Below are positions 1 to 59,822 of a stretch of DNA of 64,000 nucleotides, piece after piece (position 1 is the stretch's first letter; each line of letters starts with the position of its first letter). The notes under the pieces were generated by a model. The model did no database searches. It was not told where the DNA came from and saw only the letters and a program-made list of their open reading frames with translations. A program made the translations under genes and the position numbers. Origin of the DNA: a virus; the IMG/VR virus record IMGVR_UViG_3300023179_006341, positions 15,520 to 79,519 of that record; one strand, written 5' to 3'.

Positions 1-21
1 TAATTTAATTGAGCCTAAAAA

Positions 22-171
22 ATGAATAACATTTCTAAAGATAATTTATTTATTGGTGTGTTTGTAGCATCATTAGTGTTGATAGGTATATTTTTTGATA
101 TTGGAGAAACATGCATGATAGGATGGAACCCAATGTTAGGTGAATGTTCTGATATTGTTAAACCTAAATAA
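22..171 (+). CDS. small membrane protein (49 aa)
   Basis: Read by hand: MNNISKDNLFIGVFVASLVLIGIFFDIG...KPK*; one hydrophobic stretch. Confidence 0.55.
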   Translation: MNNISKDNLFIGVFVASLVLIGIFFDIGETCMIGWNPMLGECSDIVKPK

Positions 172-175
172 CGTG

Positions 176-268
176 ATGGATTGGTACACACTAGGTTTAC
201 TTTTGTTTGTATGTATTGCAGTGTGGATTATAGAAGATATAATTTTACCAAAGTATCAAAATAAATAA
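176..268 (+). CDS. small membrane peptide (30 aa)
   Basis: MDWYTLGLLLFVCIAVWIIEDIILPKYQNK*, follows the previous ORF directly. Confidence 0.5.
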   Translation: MDWYTLGLLLFVCIAVWIIEDIILPKYQNK

Positions 269-336
269 TAGTATTGTTGTATGAAGTTGATGGAAAAGTG
301 CTGCGGACGAGGGTTCGAATCCCTCCCACTCCACCA
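268..336 (+). ncRNA. ssrA: two-piece (permuted) tmRNA, acceptor piece
   Basis: GGAC-GAGGG-TTCGAAT-CCCTC T-arm then CCACTCC-A-CCA ending at 336; 5' boundary approximate. Confidence 0.9.
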
Positions 337-348
337 TAAATAGATTGA

Positions 349-450
349 ATGACTGAAGAAGAGATTAATAAAAGAAATTTTAAAATTAATGTTGTAATAA
401 TTTTATTAGTTTATGTAATAGGTATTACTGTTAATATAGTCTTTTTATGA
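349..450 (+). CDS. 33-aa hydrophobic peptide inside the tmRNA intervening segment
   Basis: MTEEEINKRNFKINVVIILLVYVIGITVNIVFL*; preceded by CATAAATA (335-342). Confidence 0.5.
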   Translation: MTEEEINKRNFKINVVIILLVYVIGITVNIVFL

Positions 451-451
451 T

Positions 452-640
452 GGGGTGGTATTAGGTTTCGACGGGGTAACAAGTACGGATATGGACAACA
501 CGATAGGCGAAGAACGTAATTCTAGCAAATCAAATAATCGCAAATGACGATTACTTTGGAGAAGTTCGCTTAGCTGCGTAACCTCCACGAGGTAGGAAAG
601 ACCTTGTAACCAAACTACCTAGGGGCATTTGTGCCCCTAT
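452..640 (+). ncRNA. ssrA: two-piece (permuted) tmRNA, coding piece; tag (A)ANDDYFGEVRLAA at 540-581
   Basis: 5' GGGGTGG pairs with CCACTCC (326-332) including the G3:U70 alanine determinant; GGTTTCGAC D-loop-like motif; tag frame ends LAA-stop. Confidence 0.92.
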
Positions 641-646
641 TTTTTT
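620..646 (+). terminator. intrinsic terminator
   Basis: TAGGGGCA-TTTG-TGCCCCTA followed by T-run. Confidence 0.75.
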
Positions 647-653
647 ATAAATA
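646..653 (+). promoter_or_regulatory. T4-type late promoter TATAAATA
   Basis: Exact motif; also at 1787, 2793, 20630 and 30116, with NATAAATA variants before many late genes. Confidence 0.75.
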
Positions 654-672
654 TCTTATAAGGGAGATATTT

Positions 673-1098
673 ATGTACATATATCGTTGTAGAATAAACA
701 AGGTTGTAGATGGTGATACGGTTGAAATTGATTTAGATTTAGGTTTTAACATCATTTTAGCTAATCAAAAAGTTCGTATGGCAGGTATAGATACCCCTGA
801 AAGTAGAACATCTATTGCTGAAGAAAAAGTACGTGGTATGCTATCAAAGAAAAAATTAGCAGAAAAGTTGCCTGTAGGTAGTTGGCAAAGCATACAAACA
901 ATGAAAGCTGACAATAATGATGATAAATTCGGACGCATACTTGGTGTATTCATTATGGAAGATGGTTCTAGTTTAAATCAATGGATGATTGATAATAACT
1001 ATGCTGTACTGTATCAAGGTGAAAATAAAGAATTAGTACAAGAAGGTCATCGTTACAATAAACAAAAGTTGATTGAGCGTGGTGAGCTAAAAGCATAA
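673..1098 (+). CDS. thermonuclease (SNase) family nuclease
   Basis: VVDGDT, VRMAGIDTPE and KFGRIL motifs; start set at the ATG after the GGAG RBS. Confidence 0.85.
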   Translation: MYIYRCRINKVVDGDTVEIDLDLGFNIILANQKVRMAGIDTPESRTSIAEEKVRGMLSKKKLAEKLPVGSWQSIQTMKADNNDDKFGRILGVFIMEDGSSLNQWMIDNNYAVLYQGENKELVQEGHRYNKQKLIERGELKA

Positions 1099-1108
1099 AT
1101 ACATAATC

Positions 1109-1762
1109 ATGCTTACAAGAGAGTTCATTCAAGAAGGTGTCAACGATCCTAATATTTTTAAAGCTGTGTTTATGGCAGGTGGGCCTGGCTCAGGTAAGAG
1201 TTTTGTCGCACGTCAGTTAGGATTACAAGCAGCAGGGTTACGCACCATCAATAGTGATGATGCATTTGAGTACCTACTAAGAAAACATCAACTTGACCCT
1301 AAAATGCCACCTGAAGAACAGGAAAAACGTGATATTATTAGACAACGTGCTAAAGATATTACTTCTACTAAACGATCACTTGCCATACAGGGTCGTTTAG
1401 GATTAATCATAGATGGTACTGCTAAAAATCCCGAAAAGACAGCATCAGTTAAACAAGGATTAGAAGCACTAGGTTATGACACCATGATGATATTTGTTAA
1501 TACAAGTTTACCTGTTGCTTTAGAGCGCAATCGTATGAGAGCAAGAAGCGTACCTAATGAAGTTGTAAAAAAAGCACATGAAGAAGTTCAACTAGGCAAA
1601 GAAGGATTAGAAAAAGTTTTTGGTAGCAGTTTTGTACAAGTTTTAAATGATATGGAACCTGATTTTAAACCTGCATACAAAAAATTACAATCATTTTTAA
1701 GAAAACCATTATCACCAAATGCCCAAGAATGGGTAAACATGCATACACAGCCCAAAAAATAG
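1109..1762 (+). CDS. P-loop kinase (zeta-toxin/AAA_33-like) with capsid-targeting-like N-terminus
   Basis: GGPGSGKS Walker A, IIDGT, RNxxR lid; N-terminus MLTREFIQE. Confidence 0.75.
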   Translation: MLTREFIQEGVNDPNIFKAVFMAGGPGSGKSFVARQLGLQAAGLRTINSDDAFEYLLRKHQLDPKMPPEEQEKRDIIRQRAKDITSTKRSLAIQGRLGLIIDGTAKNPEKTASVKQGLEALGYDTMMIFVNTSLPVALERNRMRARSVPNEVVKKAHEEVQLGKEGLEKVFGSSFVQVLNDMEPDFKPAYKKLQSFLRKPLSPNAQEWVNMHTQPKK

Positions 1763-1827
1763 TAATTTTTTTGTGCAGTTGCAAAATATAAATATTAGCT
1801 TATGTAAGTTTATTATAAGGAACTATT

Positions 1828-2730
1828 ATGACAATTACTACAAAATTAACCATTGCTGACAAAGCTGTGGATACAACTTACCAAGATGTAACAGGAACGA
1901 CAAGTGGTGCAGGTACAGGGGCAAAATTCGATGTAACCAAAACCAATGGTGTATATACAGTAAAATTAGATTCTGCAACAGCAAGTTCAGGAACAGGTTA
2001 TGTAGCAGGTGATACTATCACTATCCCAGGCGCAACCCTTGGGGGCACATCAACTAATAACTTGATTGTAACGGTAGCTACCGTAGGAACAAGTGGTAAA
2101 ATTGCAACATTTGGTGCAGTTGGAACAGGACGTGTAGGTGATGGTGACATTGATGTAATGTTTGAAGTAACAGGAAGCAATGCCAAAGCTGAAGTATATG
2201 CACTAACAGGCAAAAAAGCTGACTTTAGTGTTACAGTTGGTGAGACAGGTGTTGTTACTGTAACACATCCTGATCTTGACAATGTTGAACTCACTATGAA
2301 AGACATTGAACGTCTATCATTTACAGACTCATCGATTGCTTTTGATGTAAAAGGTAGTGCAGGTGAAGTATACGCTTTATTATGCGCAGCACTTGGTAAA
2401 AATGATGTTACTCCTGCTTTAGTTGGTAAATATCTTAAGTTGGCTGATTCAGGTATGACAGATACACAGATAGCTGCTGAAATACTTTCCTCAAAAGACT
2501 ATGAACTAGATGCATTAGGTTTAGGTAACGAAACCTTTGTTAAACAAGTATGGAAAAATGTTACAGGTGAATTGCCTAGCTTAGAAAATCTAAGAGCATT
2601 TACTAAAGTTTTAGATGATAAAGTTTATTCTAAAGCAGAATTACTTGAAGCTGCTTCTAACTTAACAGTTTTCCGTGATGAAGATCATATTGACTTAGTT
2701 GGTATGACAAAAATTGATTTTATCCCCTAA
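1828..2730 (+). CDS. Gly/Thr-rich surface-type protein with C-terminal DUF4214-like domain
   Basis: GTGY-x-GD-x-I repeats; IERLSFTD..AFD..AGEVYAL and FVKQVWKNV resemble DUF4214/S-layer C-termini. Confidence 0.6.
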   Translation: MTITTKLTIADKAVDTTYQDVTGTTSGAGTGAKFDVTKTNGVYTVKLDSATASSGTGYVAGDTITIPGATLGGTSTNNLIVTVATVGTSGKIATFGAVGTGRVGDGDIDVMFEVTGSNAKAEVYALTGKKADFSVTVGETGVVTVTHPDLDNVELTMKDIERLSFTDSSIAFDVKGSAGEVYALLCAALGKNDVTPALVGKYLKLADSGMTDTQIAAEILSSKDYELDALGLGNETFVKQVWKNVTGELPSLENLRAFTKVLDDKVYSKAELLEAASNLTVFRDEDHIDLVGMTKIDFIP

Positions 2731-2754
2731 AAATTTTGGATAAAATCAATTCCC

Positions 2755-2782
2755 AAAAGGGTAGTGTTTACTACCCTTTTTT
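2755..2782 (+). terminator. intrinsic terminator
   Basis: AAAAGGGTAGT-GTTT-ACTACCCTTTTTT. Confidence 0.8.
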
Positions 2783-2859
2783 ATTGTAACAATATAAATA
2801 GTATGTAAATATTACGTCCTAGACAAAAATTTTATTCACACACACAAGGAGAAAATAAA

Positions 2860-3393
2860 ATGAAAACAGTAGGTGATCGATTAGAATCCTTTACAATAAC
2901 AGGTGTAAACCCAAGTAGTGATCAGTTTTTTGATATTACTGAAAAGTCATACGCAGGAAAATGGAAAATTATCGTATACTATCCAAAATCTTTTACTTTT
3001 GTTTGTCCTACAGAGATTGTTGGATATGACAAATTATATCAAGATTTTGAAGATCGTGATACAGTTCTTCTTACAGGATCCACAGATAATGAATTTTGTG
3101 TACTAGCTTGGCAAAATAGTCATTCAGATTTAAAAAAAATTAGACATACTCAATTTGCTGATACACAAAGGGGCAACTTAAGTTTAGTCGAACAACTAGG
3201 AATATTTTACGCTCCCGCAGGAGCACCACTTAGAGCAACATTTATTATTGATCCTGACAATGTAATTCAACATGTTACAGTAAATAACTTAAATGTTGGT
3301 CGTAGTCCTGAAGAAACATTACGAATTTTAGATGGATGCCAAACCAATGAACTTTGCGCTTGCAATCGTGCTGTAGGCGGCGAAACTTTATAA
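2860..3393 (+). CDS. ahpC: peroxiredoxin AhpC
   Basis: FTFVCPTEI peroxidatic motif, RATFIIDP, GRS, C-terminal LCACN. Confidence 0.93.
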   Translation: MKTVGDRLESFTITGVNPSSDQFFDITEKSYAGKWKIIVYYPKSFTFVCPTEIVGYDKLYQDFEDRDTVLLTGSTDNEFCVLAWQNSHSDLKKIRHTQFADTQRGNLSLVEQLGIFYAPAGAPLRATFIIDPDNVIQHVTVNNLNVGRSPEETLRILDGCQTNELCACNRAVGGETL

Positions 3394-3427
3394 ATCAGTA
3401 GGGCAGACATAAATACTCTAAAAAGGA

Positions 3428-4183
3428 GTGTTTATGTCTCAAAGAATACCTTATACATATTATGTCTTTCATAAACCAACAGGTTTAAAATACTATGGTT
3501 CAAAGTATGGAAAAAATGCTGATCCTAATAGTTTTTGGAAACCTAATGGATACTATACTTCTTCAAAAAAAGTTAAAAAGCTTATTTTAGAATATGGAAT
3601 TAATTCATTTAATGCCGAGGTGAGGAAAATTTTTGACAGTCCTGAAAAAGCATTGATTTACGAATACAAATTTTTAAAAAAAGTAAAAGCTTTATCAAAA
3701 GATGATTGGTTAAATGATAATTACGGAGGAGAAAAATTTAGAAATATTGGTCCTGCTAGCGAAAAAACTTTGCAAGCACAAAAAAATAAAAAACAATCAC
3801 CTGAAAGTAATATAAAAAGATCTAATTCTTTAAAAGGCAGAATTATTTCTGATGAAACAAGAAAAAAAATGTCAGAAGTTCAAAAAAATAGATCTGAAGA
3901 AAATGAAATGCTTAGGCGAGACAAAATTAGACAACATGCTTTAGGAAGAAATCAAAGTGAAAAAGTTAAAAAACAATTGTCTCATATAGTTAGTAACACA
4001 AGATGGGTTCATAATGGCAAAATGCAAAAAAAAGTTGGTAAAGATGAGTTACAAATATATATAGATAATGGTTGGCATAATGGTAGAATTTTGTCTATAG
4101 TTACTTGTCCACATTGTGATCAAAGTGGTGTAAAACATAATATAGCTAGAAAACACTTTGATAAATGCCAATCTAAAAAATAG
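3428..4183 (+). CDS. free-standing GIY-YIG homing endonuclease with NUMOD3-like repeats
   Basis: YTY-x10-YYG N-terminal domain; SDETRKKMS repeat; C-terminal CPHC..HFDKC. Confidence 0.75.
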   Translation: MFMSQRIPYTYYVFHKPTGLKYYGSKYGKNADPNSFWKPNGYYTSSKKVKKLILEYGINSFNAEVRKIFDSPEKALIYEYKFLKKVKALSKDDWLNDNYGGEKFRNIGPASEKTLQAQKNKKQSPESNIKRSNSLKGRIISDETRKKMSEVQKNRSEENEMLRRDKIRQHALGRNQSEKVKKQLSHIVSNTRWVHNGKMQKKVGKDELQIYIDNGWHNGRILSIVTCPHCDQSGVKHNIARKHFDKCQSKK

Positions 4184-51230: not shown

Positions 51231-52322
51231 ATGAAAAAGTTACTTGCTAGTTTATTGATAATAGTGCCAACCATAGTTTTTGCTGACGCTTGGATTGTGA
51301 TTAGTGTAACTAAATTCATTGTTGAAAACCTACCAAATACGCCACTTACACAAAAAGTACGTGTTAAAGGTGAATCTGATACTGCTGATAATGCGTTACA
51401 AGGTGGGTTTCGTGAAGCATGTAATCAAACATGGGGTAGTAGTGTAATTAGTGATCGTAGTGCGGTGAATGGTCGGTTGAGTACGGATCGTGTAGCCTCA
51501 AGTAGTAGTTGCTTTGTGAAAAATTATACAATTTTGGATAGATCATCTTATACTAATAACGTGGGAGATAAACGTTACGTAATCGAAATGGAAGTAGTAA
51601 CATCACCAAATAGTATCGATAGTAGATTACTTGGTGATAGTAATAAAATGAATAATATTCAAGGTGATCAACACCAAGCTGCTATACAATCATTATTAAA
51701 CAGTAGAAAAAACCAAGATAATTTAATTAAAGCCTATTTTAATTATTATCCTGAAGGTGCATTTGATATCACTGTTCATAATTTAGAAAGTGGAGTCAAT
51801 AATAGGCAATCATTTCTTAAAATTAATTATGAATATAAATTAAGTTATAAATTTATGCATGGATTATGGTCATTATTACACATAATGAAAGTACCAACTA
51901 ATTTCACCATGTTTGATCAACGATGTAATGATCCTGCATGTGTTGCACATTATGCAAGAAATTCAAATGGTATTCGTAGCGTGAAATTAACTATGCGGGA
52001 AAGTGGTAATATTATTGGTGAATCTGATTTGATTACCCTAAATGAAGGTAATTATAAAGAATTGCAAAATTCGATGAAACAATCAAGTGCAAGTATCCAA
52101 TTTAGTTTTCTAGATGCATCAAATAATATTTTAATCCAAGTTTGTGATCGTAATATTCAAAATAATAATGTATTATTAGAAGGTAATGGAACAGGATTAA
52201 TTCGTGGTGATCGTTGGGAAAAAAATTCACTTATGATTATGTTATCGAATAGTGATTTAAACAATCTAAAAAATTATCACAGGTTAGAAACAAAAGCAGT
52301 ACGCAATTGTCAAGGAAGATAA
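51231..52322 (+). CDS. secreted/periplasmic hypothetical protein
   Basis: Signal peptide MKKLLASLL..VFA. Confidence 0.7.
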   Translation: MKKLLASLLIIVPTIVFADAWIVISVTKFIVENLPNTPLTQKVRVKGESDTADNALQGGFREACNQTWGSSVISDRSAVNGRLSTDRVASSSSCFVKNYTILDRSSYTNNVGDKRYVIEMEVVTSPNSIDSRLLGDSNKMNNIQGDQHQAAIQSLLNSRKNQDNLIKAYFNYYPEGAFDITVHNLESGVNNRQSFLKINYEYKLSYKFMHGLWSLLHIMKVPTNFTMFDQRCNDPACVAHYARNSNGIRSVKLTMRESGNIIGESDLITLNEGNYKELQNSMKQSSASIQFSFLDASNNILIQVCDRNIQNNNVLLEGNGTGLIRGDRWEKNSLMIMLSNSDLNNLKNYHRLETKAVRNCQGR

Positions 52323-52330
52323 GTAAATAT

Positions 52331-53587
52331 ATGGGAGATGTATATCATTTTCAAGAATGTAGTTTTTGTGGAAAACACAAAAATGTTGTTAAAAAACTTA
52401 TAGTAGGTGAAGGTACGGCTATTTGTAGCGATTGTGTAGAATTGTGTAATGATTTATTAAAAGATGAAGAACCAATTGAGGAAAATATTCCTCGAAAAGT
52501 AAGTTTTTATGCTGATGATATCAAAGTATTTTTAGATAATTATATTATTGGTCAAGATGCTGCTAAAATATTACTTAGTGTAGCTGTAGCTAATCATTAT
52601 AAACGTATTACTGCAGATACTAAAGAATTAGAAATTCAAAAAGCAAATGTACTAATTCTTGGTCCTAGCGGTGGTGGTAAGACGTTAATGGCAAAAACTG
52701 TAGCAAAATATTTAGATGTTCCTTTTGTCATTGCAGATGCAACATCATTGACTGAGGCAGGTTATGTAGGTGATGATGTTGAAAGCATGATTCAAAGATT
52801 AGTTGCCGCTGCTGATGGAGATATTGAAAGAGCACAACGAGGAATTGTTTTTGTCGATGAAGTTGATAAGATTGCACGTAAAAGTGAAAGTGCAAGTATT
52901 ACACGTGATGTAAGTGGTGAAGGAGTTCAACAAGCATTATTAAAACTTGTTGAGGGTACATTATGTCGTGTTCCACAACAAGGAAAACGCAAACATCCTA
53001 ATAACGATATGTTAGAAATTGATACAAAAAATATATTGTTTATTGCAGGAGGAGCATTTGTAGGATTATCTGATATTATTTCAAGAAGAATGCATGGCAA
53101 TAGTATTGGATTTTCTGCACAAGTTGGACATACAGTGACAATGGATGAAATTCTTTCACAGGTTACACCTGATGATTTAACAAAATATGGCATGATTCCT
53201 GAATTTACAGGAAGATTTACTTGTAGAGTATCAATTAATGAATTAACTAAAGAACAATTGATACAAATTTTAACTCAAGTTAAGAATAATTTTATTGAAC
53301 AATATCAATATTTGTTAAGTCTTGATGAAATAGAATTAAAATTTACACCCTCTGCTATCGAACAAATTGCTGAAAATTGTCTTGCATTAAAAACAGGTGC
53401 ACGTGGCTTACAAAGTGAAGTTGAGCGTGTTTTATTAAATATTATGTTCAATAGTAAATATTTAAAAGGTAAAAAAATTCAAATTGATAAAATGGATGTG
53501 ATCAATCCTGAATTGCTAAATAAACATTGGGAACTTAAGCAAAATGAAACATACTTAGGTTCTATTTTAAAAAAAGGTAAAAAATGA
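52331..53587 (+). CDS. clpX: ATP-dependent Clp protease ATPase ClpX
   Basis: CSFC..C..C zinc domain, [28 protein letters not shown]. Confidence 0.95.
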
Positions 53588-59222: not shown

Positions 59223-59822
59223 ATGAGTCTTGTACCTATTGTAATTGAACAAACTAGTCGTGGTGAACGTAGCTACGACATATATAGTAGATTATTACGT
59301 GATCGTGTCGTTATTCTTAATGGGGAAGTTAATCATGTCACAGCGAATTTAATTGTGGCACAATTATTATTCCTTGAAAGCGAAGATAATGAAAAAGATA
59401 TTAGTTTTTACATCAACAGCCCAGGCGGTTCTGTCACCGATGGCATGAGTATTTACGATACCATGCAATTCATTAAACCCAATGTGTCTACTATCGTTAT
59501 GGGACAAGCCTGCTCTATGGGTTCGTTTTTAGCTCAAGCAGGTGCTGCGGGTAAACGTTATATTCTTCCTCATGCACGTCACATGATACATCAACCTAGT
59601 GGTGGTGCACGTGGTATGGCAAGTGATATGGAAATATCCCTCAAAGAAATTCTTAAAATGAAACGTATGCTGACTGAACTGTACGTTAAGCATAATTCAG
59701 TCGGTATGTCTTTCAATGATTTCCAACGTGACATGGATCGTGATAAGTTTATGTCTGCTCAAGAATCAGTTGATTACGGTTTGGCAGATAAAATTATTAC
59801 TAAACGTGAAAATAATGCCTAA
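59223..59822 (+). CDS. clpP: Clp protease proteolytic subunit
   Basis: [18 protein letters not shown] (Ser), MIHQP (His), DRD (Asp). Confidence 0.96.

Follow-up and report, generated by a model that had tools for sequence, protein, structure and literature searches.

Can the segment that is cut out of a permuted tmRNA be a protein gene in its own right? The question is raised by a locus in a 64,000-nucleotide stretch of phage DNA (the window; positions 15520-79519 in an IMG/VR virus record of 79.5 kb), in which the intervening segment (IVS) between the two pieces of a tmRNA is filled by an open reading frame. CheckV rates the record as 23% complete, and the source is thus a large phage. DNA holding the window stretch comes from lake, river, aquaculture and estuary metagenomes in 15 studies, in keeping with a freshwater phage, and BLAST searches of GenBank phages with window positions 1-4000 and with the tmRNA region returned no match.

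The Rfam model RF04321 matches positions 275-581 on the + strand with 108.7 bits (gathering score 47; model positions 1-213), and ARAGORN also calls a permuted tmRNA here, with the tag ANDDYFGEVRLAA. The gene is circularly permuted in that the acceptor piece lies upstream of the coding piece. According to the RF04321 alignment, ARAGORN and the sequence, the acceptor piece (275-336, + strand) comprises the 3′ half of the tRNA-like domain with the T-arm; it ends in the acceptor 3′ strand (326-332), the discriminator A333 and an encoded CCA (334-336). The coding piece (452-619, + strand; Rfam and ARAGORN) contains the 5′ acceptor strand (452-458) and the mRNA-like domain, whose tag reading frame (540-578, stop codon 579-581) is supported by ARAGORN and by translation. 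The tag frame resumes on an alanine codon and is closed by a stop, and its hydrophobic C-terminus ends in LAA. The two acceptor strands form a 7-bp stem (452-458 with 326-332) that places G454 opposite T330, the G3-U70 pair of alanine identity. An intrinsic terminator with an 8-bp GC-rich stem and a T run follows at 620-646 (+ strand). Judged by its score of 108.7 bits, the G3-U70 pair, the encoded CCA, the LAA tag and the terminator, the tmRNA looks intact. Furthermore, the window encodes both ClpX (52307-53587, with zinc finger and AAA_2 domains) and ClpP (59223-59822), which speaks for a tmRNA still in use and against a decaying one. The phage has a tagging RNA together with a protease that reads LAA tags.

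The + strand motif AATAAATA at 260-267, which ends 8 nt 5′ of the tmRNA gene start, resembles a T4-late-type promoter (NATAAATA) and is likely the promoter of the tmRNA precursor; the promoter scan found no sigma-70-like promoter upstream of the window tmRNA. Among the matches listed, the sequences upstream of related tmRNA genes comprise 104 distinct regions, of which 36 carry a sigma-70-like promoter at a fixed place and a further 26 carry ATAAATA, which in 17 cases starts at exactly -15/-16 relative to GTTGTATGAAG. The window tmRNA belongs to this ATAAATA class, through the motif at 260-267. A metatranscriptome contig from run X19 is identical to 464-615. The contigs of runs X19 and X20 touch the tmRNA pieces with nothing over 339-463, and two runs that are probably DNA continue across the IVS; as assembled contigs, these are silent on expression and excision.

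The IVS itself (337-451, + strand) lies between the CCA end and G1 of the coding piece, is 115 nt long, a length kept in relatives, and is absent from the mature two-piece tmRNA. Its G+C content is 17%. An ORF at 349-450 (+ strand), consisting of 33 sense codons and a TGA (448-450), fills this segment so completely that T451 stands alone between the stop codon and G1, as an earlier note on the sequence had recognized. The product, P0001, is a predicted single-pass membrane peptide of 33 residues with a charged N-terminus, first acidic and then basic, followed by approximately 21 hydrophobic residues. The note had described a basic N-terminus and one transmembrane helix; the hydrophobic stretch is present, and the description of the N-terminus was rough.

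Exact-pattern scans recovered the same IVS family in two other viral contigs (L002 and L003) and in five metagenome contigs (L155, L156, L157, L168 and L169), after 10 of the 15 matches from the metagenome scan had been discarded as chance hits with unrelated, GC-rich inserts. In all eight independent sequences, which come from different samples, the IVS measures 115 nt with no insertion or deletion; the codon count is 33 in seven and 32 in one, and in one relative TGA is replaced by TAA at the same place. The 33 codons hold 28 distinct variants across the eight sequences, of which 19 are synonymous, eight are replacements and one, in the last codon, creates a stop. All replacements are conservative except two (S/L at codon 19 and V/T at codon 16). 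Nineteen synonymous changes compare with 7.7 expected, a number reached in none of 20,000 random-placement trials (P<5e-5). Pairwise dN/dS within the family is 0.06-0.25; the sequences are only 15-18% diverged, and the selection test is therefore based on these 28 variants. ORF 349-450 evolves under purifying selection on its protein. The earlier note had proposed this comparison of ORF conservation and dN/dS, and it has come out on the side of a gene. The tag regions of the same tmRNAs differ in nearly every sequence, so the constraint on the IVS ORF exceeds that on a portion of the mature RNA.

A search with a profile built from the eight peptides retrieves a single cluster, P0003, from among 1.84 billion representatives (E = 5e-19). 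In P0003, which is encoded by a gene in a public assembly, the peptide is the same, but TGG replaces the TGA and read-through adds 11 residues. As the sole cluster found, it indicates that the peptide has already been called by gene callers and is without distant relatives. Searches with P0001 itself gave nothing below E = 0.04 in PHROGs, and in a protein atlas the best value was about 0.80, for clusters of small membrane proteins and under the level at which a match is meaningful.

Two further small ORFs lie just upstream of the tmRNA gene. The first (22-171, + strand) encodes a small membrane protein of 49 aa and is a conserved neighbor outside the tmRNA, with a homolog of 73% amino-acid identity at 3981-4130 of L008. 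The second (176-268, + strand) is a hydrophobic ORF of 30 codons and of uncertain reality, with no convincing counterpart in the relatives' loci that were compared. The earlier note regarded both as similar to the IVS ORF; they do exist and do encode small hydrophobic peptides, but this is all they share with it, there being no sequence similarity. The idea that the upstream ORFs are relics of older tmRNA ends was rejected, as local alignment of 1-274 with the tmRNA was no better than that of shuffled sequences. Beyond them, just upstream of the window, is a gene for a substrate-binding lipoprotein of the PnrA/Bmp family (L001:2-1057; PF02608, 194 bits). It adjoins the tmRNA gene in many relatives (L006-L028, 42-96% identity) and probably serves the phages in nucleoside uptake, as an auxiliary metabolic gene.

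The upstream PnrA/Bmp-like gene and a pattern for the tmRNA 5′ end were used to collect related loci, which gave at least 120 viral contigs. Among the matches listed, 129 tmRNAs yield 109 unique IVSs, 83 of them shorter than 98 nt; most measure 50-97 nt, form short hairpins, are higher in G+C and contain no ORF. The longer segments are different. Among the matches listed, 16 of the 26 unique IVSs of at least 98 nt hold a single ATG-initiated sense ORF that covers at least 70% of the segment, as against none of 26 on the antisense strand and a mean of 0.49 (maximum 4) in shuffled sequences. These ORFs are placed alike: among the matches listed, 13 of 16 start at IVS nucleotides 10-13 (range 10-72) and 13 of 16 end exactly 1 nt before G1, mostly with TGA.

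The cargo of these segments is mutually unrelated. It includes several membrane peptides (32-83 residues) and soluble proteins (43-65 residues), among others. One protein of 122 residues gives weak hints of GNAT and wHTH folds. A 531-nt IVS holds the gene for an HNH homing endonuclease of 152 residues (L076:2268-2726, - strand; phrog_655, 2.6e-15), and another IVS encodes a GNAT domain (L153:13648-13905; PF00583, 25.7 bits, above the cut-off) in an ORF that is cut by the contig end. In other cargo for which two diverged copies are available, dN is lower than dS. Taken together, the comparison supports the view, first put forward in the earlier note, that the IVS acts as a cargo slot, which in related phages holds unrelated small ORFs that are under selection.

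Several loci deserve separate mention. An IVS ORF at L138:538-906 weakly matches a GNAT-type acetyltransferase. The HNH gene of L076 is preceded by two copies of TATAAATA and its own AGGAG, and still uses the TGA located 1 nt before G1. The TGA before G1 is not in frame with the IVS ORFs of L056 and L024 (IVS of 143-144 nt) and L096 (117 nt), and in L104 (174-nt IVS) G1 is preceded by TGTT and the TGA is lost; these four ORFs run 27-81 nt into the 5′ region of the mature tmRNA, and may represent gene overlap, cargo in decay or misassembly at T runs. The coding piece of a group-A tmRNA at approximately 3130-3235 of L155 has a tag frame of apparently 33 codons that ends in AFA, while the tags of its relatives have 10-14 residues. 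ARAGORN misread the tag in L002/L009 and L026, and missed the permuted tmRNAs of L006, L007, L011, L014, L028 and others, which Rfam RF04321 found.

The tmRNA subtype that starts with GTTGTATGAAG occurs in at least 120 viral contigs, compared with two MAG contigs in 185,579 species genomes. The two MAG carriers were binned as Burkholderiales and Flavobacteriaceae, and the IVS is ORF-free in both. This near-confinement to viral contigs gives the subtype the appearance of a tmRNA lineage that phages maintain, and not of one captured recently from hosts.

A closing stem that extends the acceptor stem joins the two ends of the IVS. Its 5′ strand (335-347, + strand), assigned from the fold and from pairing across the family, covers the site at which relatives carry a Shine-Dalgarno-like motif; its 3′ strand (437-449, + strand), assigned from the fold, carries the final codons together with T448 and G449 of the TGA, and A450 is left unpaired. 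In the fold of 326-458 (MFE -31 kcal/mol, z = -3.5), CATAAA (335-340) pairs with TTTATG (444-449), the extension of the acceptor stem that the earlier note had pointed out, and AGATTG (342-347) pairs with TAGTCT (437-442). The stop codon is thereby tied to the CCA end, T448 pairing with A336 and G449 with C335. Folded by itself, the IVS is unremarkable (z = -0.14), which matches the expectation for coding RNA.

The closing stem is a property of the family. IVS nucleotides 1-11 pair with nucleotides L-4 to L-14 in 84-100% of 104 unique IVSs among the matches listed, and the 11 bp covary, with as many as six kinds of pair at a position, whether or not the segment carries cargo. Pairing drops sharply when the partner strand is taken from another IVS or shifted by one nucleotide. 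The sequence TGAT is found 5′ of G1 also in ORF-free IVSs and in phages HTVC008M and Ruegeria V10. Its presence there indicates that the stop codon is a by-product of the processing stem that cargo genes have adopted.

The purine-rich 5′ strand of the stem appears, from its sequence, to be used likewise by the cargo genes, as a ribosome-binding region. The window has no recognizable Shine-Dalgarno motif, its ATG being preceded by TAAATAGATTGA, and to this extent the earlier remark that no clear motif is visible stands. It does not extend to the relatives: all seven have the Shine-Dalgarno-like AAGAG 5 nt before the ATG, within CATAAAGA. Among the matches listed, a motif of this kind falls in the first 14 nt of nine of 15 ORF-bearing IVSs and of 12 of 94 ORF-free IVSs; TAAGGA or TAAGGTGA precedes other cargo ORFs. 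Once the precursor has folded, the would-be ribosome-binding region is base-paired.

These observations can be combined into a model for expression and maturation. We consider it likely that ORF 349-450 is a real membrane-peptide gene, located in the IVS of a functional tmRNA, expressed from a single precursor and carried in an exchangeable cassette. The precursor would run from the promoter motif at 260-267 to the terminator at 620-646, through acceptor piece, IVS and coding piece in that order. A single precursor is the simplest arrangement, given the promoter class at 260-267 and the covarying stem, which needs both ends of the IVS in one RNA. Pairing of the IVS ends would lengthen the acceptor stem by about 12 bp and so form the conserved processing architecture, from which tRNA-type processing would free the two pieces, with RNase P predicted to cut at G452 and the 3′ end trimmed to the CCA at 336. 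The ORF would borrow this architecture, taking its ribosome-binding region from the 5′ strand of the stem and placing its last codons and TGA in the 3′ strand. Translation would most likely begin while the precursor is still being transcribed and lacks the 3′ strand of the stem; alternatively, it may start on the released IVS. The excised tmRNA spacer thus probably also acts as a messenger.

It is conceivable that the ORF is expressed mainly from an internal late-type promoter of its own, CATAAATA (335-342, + strand), as a leaderless or nearly leaderless mRNA that continues into the coding piece. The ORF would then be an ordinary late gene lying by chance between the tmRNA halves. We regard this as unlikely, though it is compatible with the model above. 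As the earlier note observed, the motif is present, overlaps the CCA end and fits NATAAATA. It ends 6 nt 5′ of the AUG, and a transcription start site 6-7 nt downstream would fall on the AUG itself (349). The wider distribution of such motifs lends this proposal some weight. The window has 21 copies of NATAAATA on the + strand and six on the - strand, and an ORF often starts 5-60 nt downstream of the motif; two copies of CATAAATA in the window lie 7 and 12 nt before start codons; late-type motifs stand at the fixed -15/-16 position upstream of 17 related tmRNA genes among the matches listed; and the HNH-bearing IVS of L076 has its two TATAAATA copies and AGGAG. Examples of NATAAATA on the + strand are those at 1095, 1788, 2794, 3409, 20631, 27301, 30117, 32013 and 48901. 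The distribution fits a putative T4-late-type promoter. PHROG scans of 20 large ORFs gave no clear sign either way as to whether the phage is T4-like.

Other observations speak against the internal promoter. All seven that carry the ORF read CATAAAGA at this place, which does not match NATAAATA, so the motif is outside the conserved design and an internal promoter is at most a peculiarity of the window phage. Furthermore, exact TATAAATA is rarer in the window than chance predicts (6 versus 15 expected), and covariation in the closing stem speaks for both ends of the IVS belonging to one RNA. At position 341 (IVS nucleotide 5), a lone G-to-T difference from all seven relatives removes AAGAG and at the same time creates the match to NATAAATA. 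This difference may be a switch between expression led by a Shine-Dalgarno motif and leaderless expression, or it may be noise.

In the preferred reading, a single precursor that yields both peptide and tmRNA, the gene and the tmRNA might also be coupled, and in two ways: a translating ribosome would block maturation, and the cleaved message would feed the tmRNA/ClpXP pathway. We offer this only tentatively and think it rather improbable. If it were true, a ribosome sitting on the 3′ strand of the stem and G1 would prevent formation of the acceptor stem and of the RNase P substrate, and less translation initiation would result in more tmRNA output. A message cut by RNase P would end 1 nt past the stop codon and would produce near-non-stop complexes, potential substrates for the phage tmRNA and ClpXP, and the membrane peptide would be restricted to a short pulse.

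It might even be the act of translating the IVS, more than the peptide, that matters, with the ribosome delaying folding and RNase P cleavage and in this way tuning the tmRNA supply. The geometry is suggestive, with the stop codon 1 nt before G1 and the ribosome-binding site and last codons in opposite strands of one stem, and the layout is repeated with unrelated cargo. We nevertheless judge this improbable, since the peptide sequence itself is under purifying selection and cargo with enzyme domains points to products that matter. Moreover, among the matches listed the 83 of 109 unique IVSs below 98 nt are mostly without an ORF, so such control is not needed for tmRNA function.

That the IVS is kept solely as a structured or processing RNA, with the open frame as an untranslated by-product, is very unlikely. 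Its ends do form a conserved stem, and the TGAT in ORF-free IVSs, HTVC008M and Ruegeria V10 means that the stop is there for RNA reasons. Against it, folding in the interior of the segment is ordinary (z = -0.14), 19 of the 28 variants are synonymous, sense ORFs exceed antisense ones (16/26 versus 0/26 among the matches listed) and recognizable protein domains are found in the same slot. Finally, chance openness in AT-rich DNA, which the earlier note had named as the way its idea could fail, deserves almost no credence: a single ORF of 33 codons in a segment of 17% G+C is not rare, but the comparative data contradict it, with no indels in eight sequences, P<5e-5 for the substitution pattern and sense ORFs in 16 of 26 long IVSs versus antisense ORFs in 0 of 26 among the matches listed.

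Window positions 275-640 align with L014:4082-4400 in 33 of 35 positions at the 5′ end of the acceptor piece and in 150 of 156 positions of the coding piece, including an identical tag, but show no relationship in the T-arm, in either acceptor strand or in the IVS, which is ORF-free in L014. The comparison with L002:4360-4802 has the opposite form, the center matching in 27/27, 98/115 and 12/12 positions and the flanks in 28/35 and 129/156. This mosaic relationship to L014 and L002 indicates that a module of T-arm, acceptor stem and IVS has been swapped by recombination in the conserved flanks, and the three elements would accordingly travel together as an exchangeable cassette. The HNH gene in the IVS of L076 suggests an additional exchange route, driven by the endonuclease.

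Phage-encoded two-piece tmRNAs are known from the OM43 phage Melnitz and from pelagimyophages, and a two-piece form has been suggested for 53 of the 133 unique tmRNA structures found in 402 phages (PMC9004378). The 2025 tmRNA database, with 79 phage sequences, lists as unusual contents of a permuted IVS only a tRNA-Ala gene and a repetitive element (PMC11915505). The window tmRNA shares with the described permuted tmRNAs (RF04321; clade models RF01849 and RF01850) the order of acceptor piece, IVS and coding piece, an IVS closed by a stem and an LAA tag, and with the permuted tmRNAs of aquatic phages it shares being phage-borne. It differs in that their IVS is treated as a discarded spacer, whereas that of the window holds a protein gene under selection; in HTVC008M, Ruegeria V10 and Brevundimonas Bajun, the IVS is ORF-free. 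Our full-text literature search found no paper on protein genes in the IVS of permuted tmRNAs, in agreement with the earlier note, whose author was not aware of such a description.

Group I introns in the T-loop of tmRNA are known (PMC11915505). As with proteins encoded in such introns, among them homing endonucleases, the window gene lies in the removed part of a stable-RNA gene, and the IVS of L076 even contains an HNH homing endonuclease, as group I introns do. The Rfam scan of the window, however, detected no intron family that would point to self-splicing. Unlike a group I intron, the window IVS would be removed by end-processing and its flanks are not rejoined, the tmRNA gene being permuted and not interrupted. 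The cargo also differs, being a membrane peptide in the window and not an endonuclease.

Other systems resemble the locus in part. The tRNA cluster of phage T4 contains small ORFs and the segB homing endonuclease gene between separate RNA genes. The likeness lies in protein genes that are co-transcribed with stable RNAs cut by tRNA-processing enzymes, and in endonuclease-driven exchange in a region of RNA genes. Unlike in T4, the window ORF is inside one RNA gene, between halves that pair with each other, and relies on the processing stem for its stop codon. In type I toxin systems such as hok/sok, the mRNA encodes a short hydrophobic peptide, and its 5′ and 3′ ends pair over the ribosome-binding region. 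The window IVS has both the small hydrophobic peptide and the paired ends, but this is a resemblance only: ORF and promoter scans revealed no antisense element at the IVS, and in relatives the same slot holds cargo that is not membrane-associated. In dual-function RNAs such as SgrS/SgrT and RNAIII/hld, one transcript is both a functional RNA and a messenger. The window transcript differs from these in that its coding part is cut away from the functional RNA.

Permuted phage tmRNAs are therefore not new in themselves; what is new here is that the excised spacer of one is a slot for protein genes. The consequences for annotation are direct. Tools that impose a limit on IVS length when searching for tmRNAs miss genes of this kind, pipelines under-report them, and the slot is a new place to look for small phage proteins that gene callers and RNA annotators alike skip. 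The locus also provides a natural system in which translation and RNA processing would compete on one transcript, and it adds a new example of a gene nested in a stable-RNA gene. For the phages concerned, the IVS of the permuted tmRNA, so far seen as disposable, would be in use as a gene slot by a whole phage tmRNA lineage, one that supplies its occupants with a ribosome-binding strand and a stop codon from within the processing stem.
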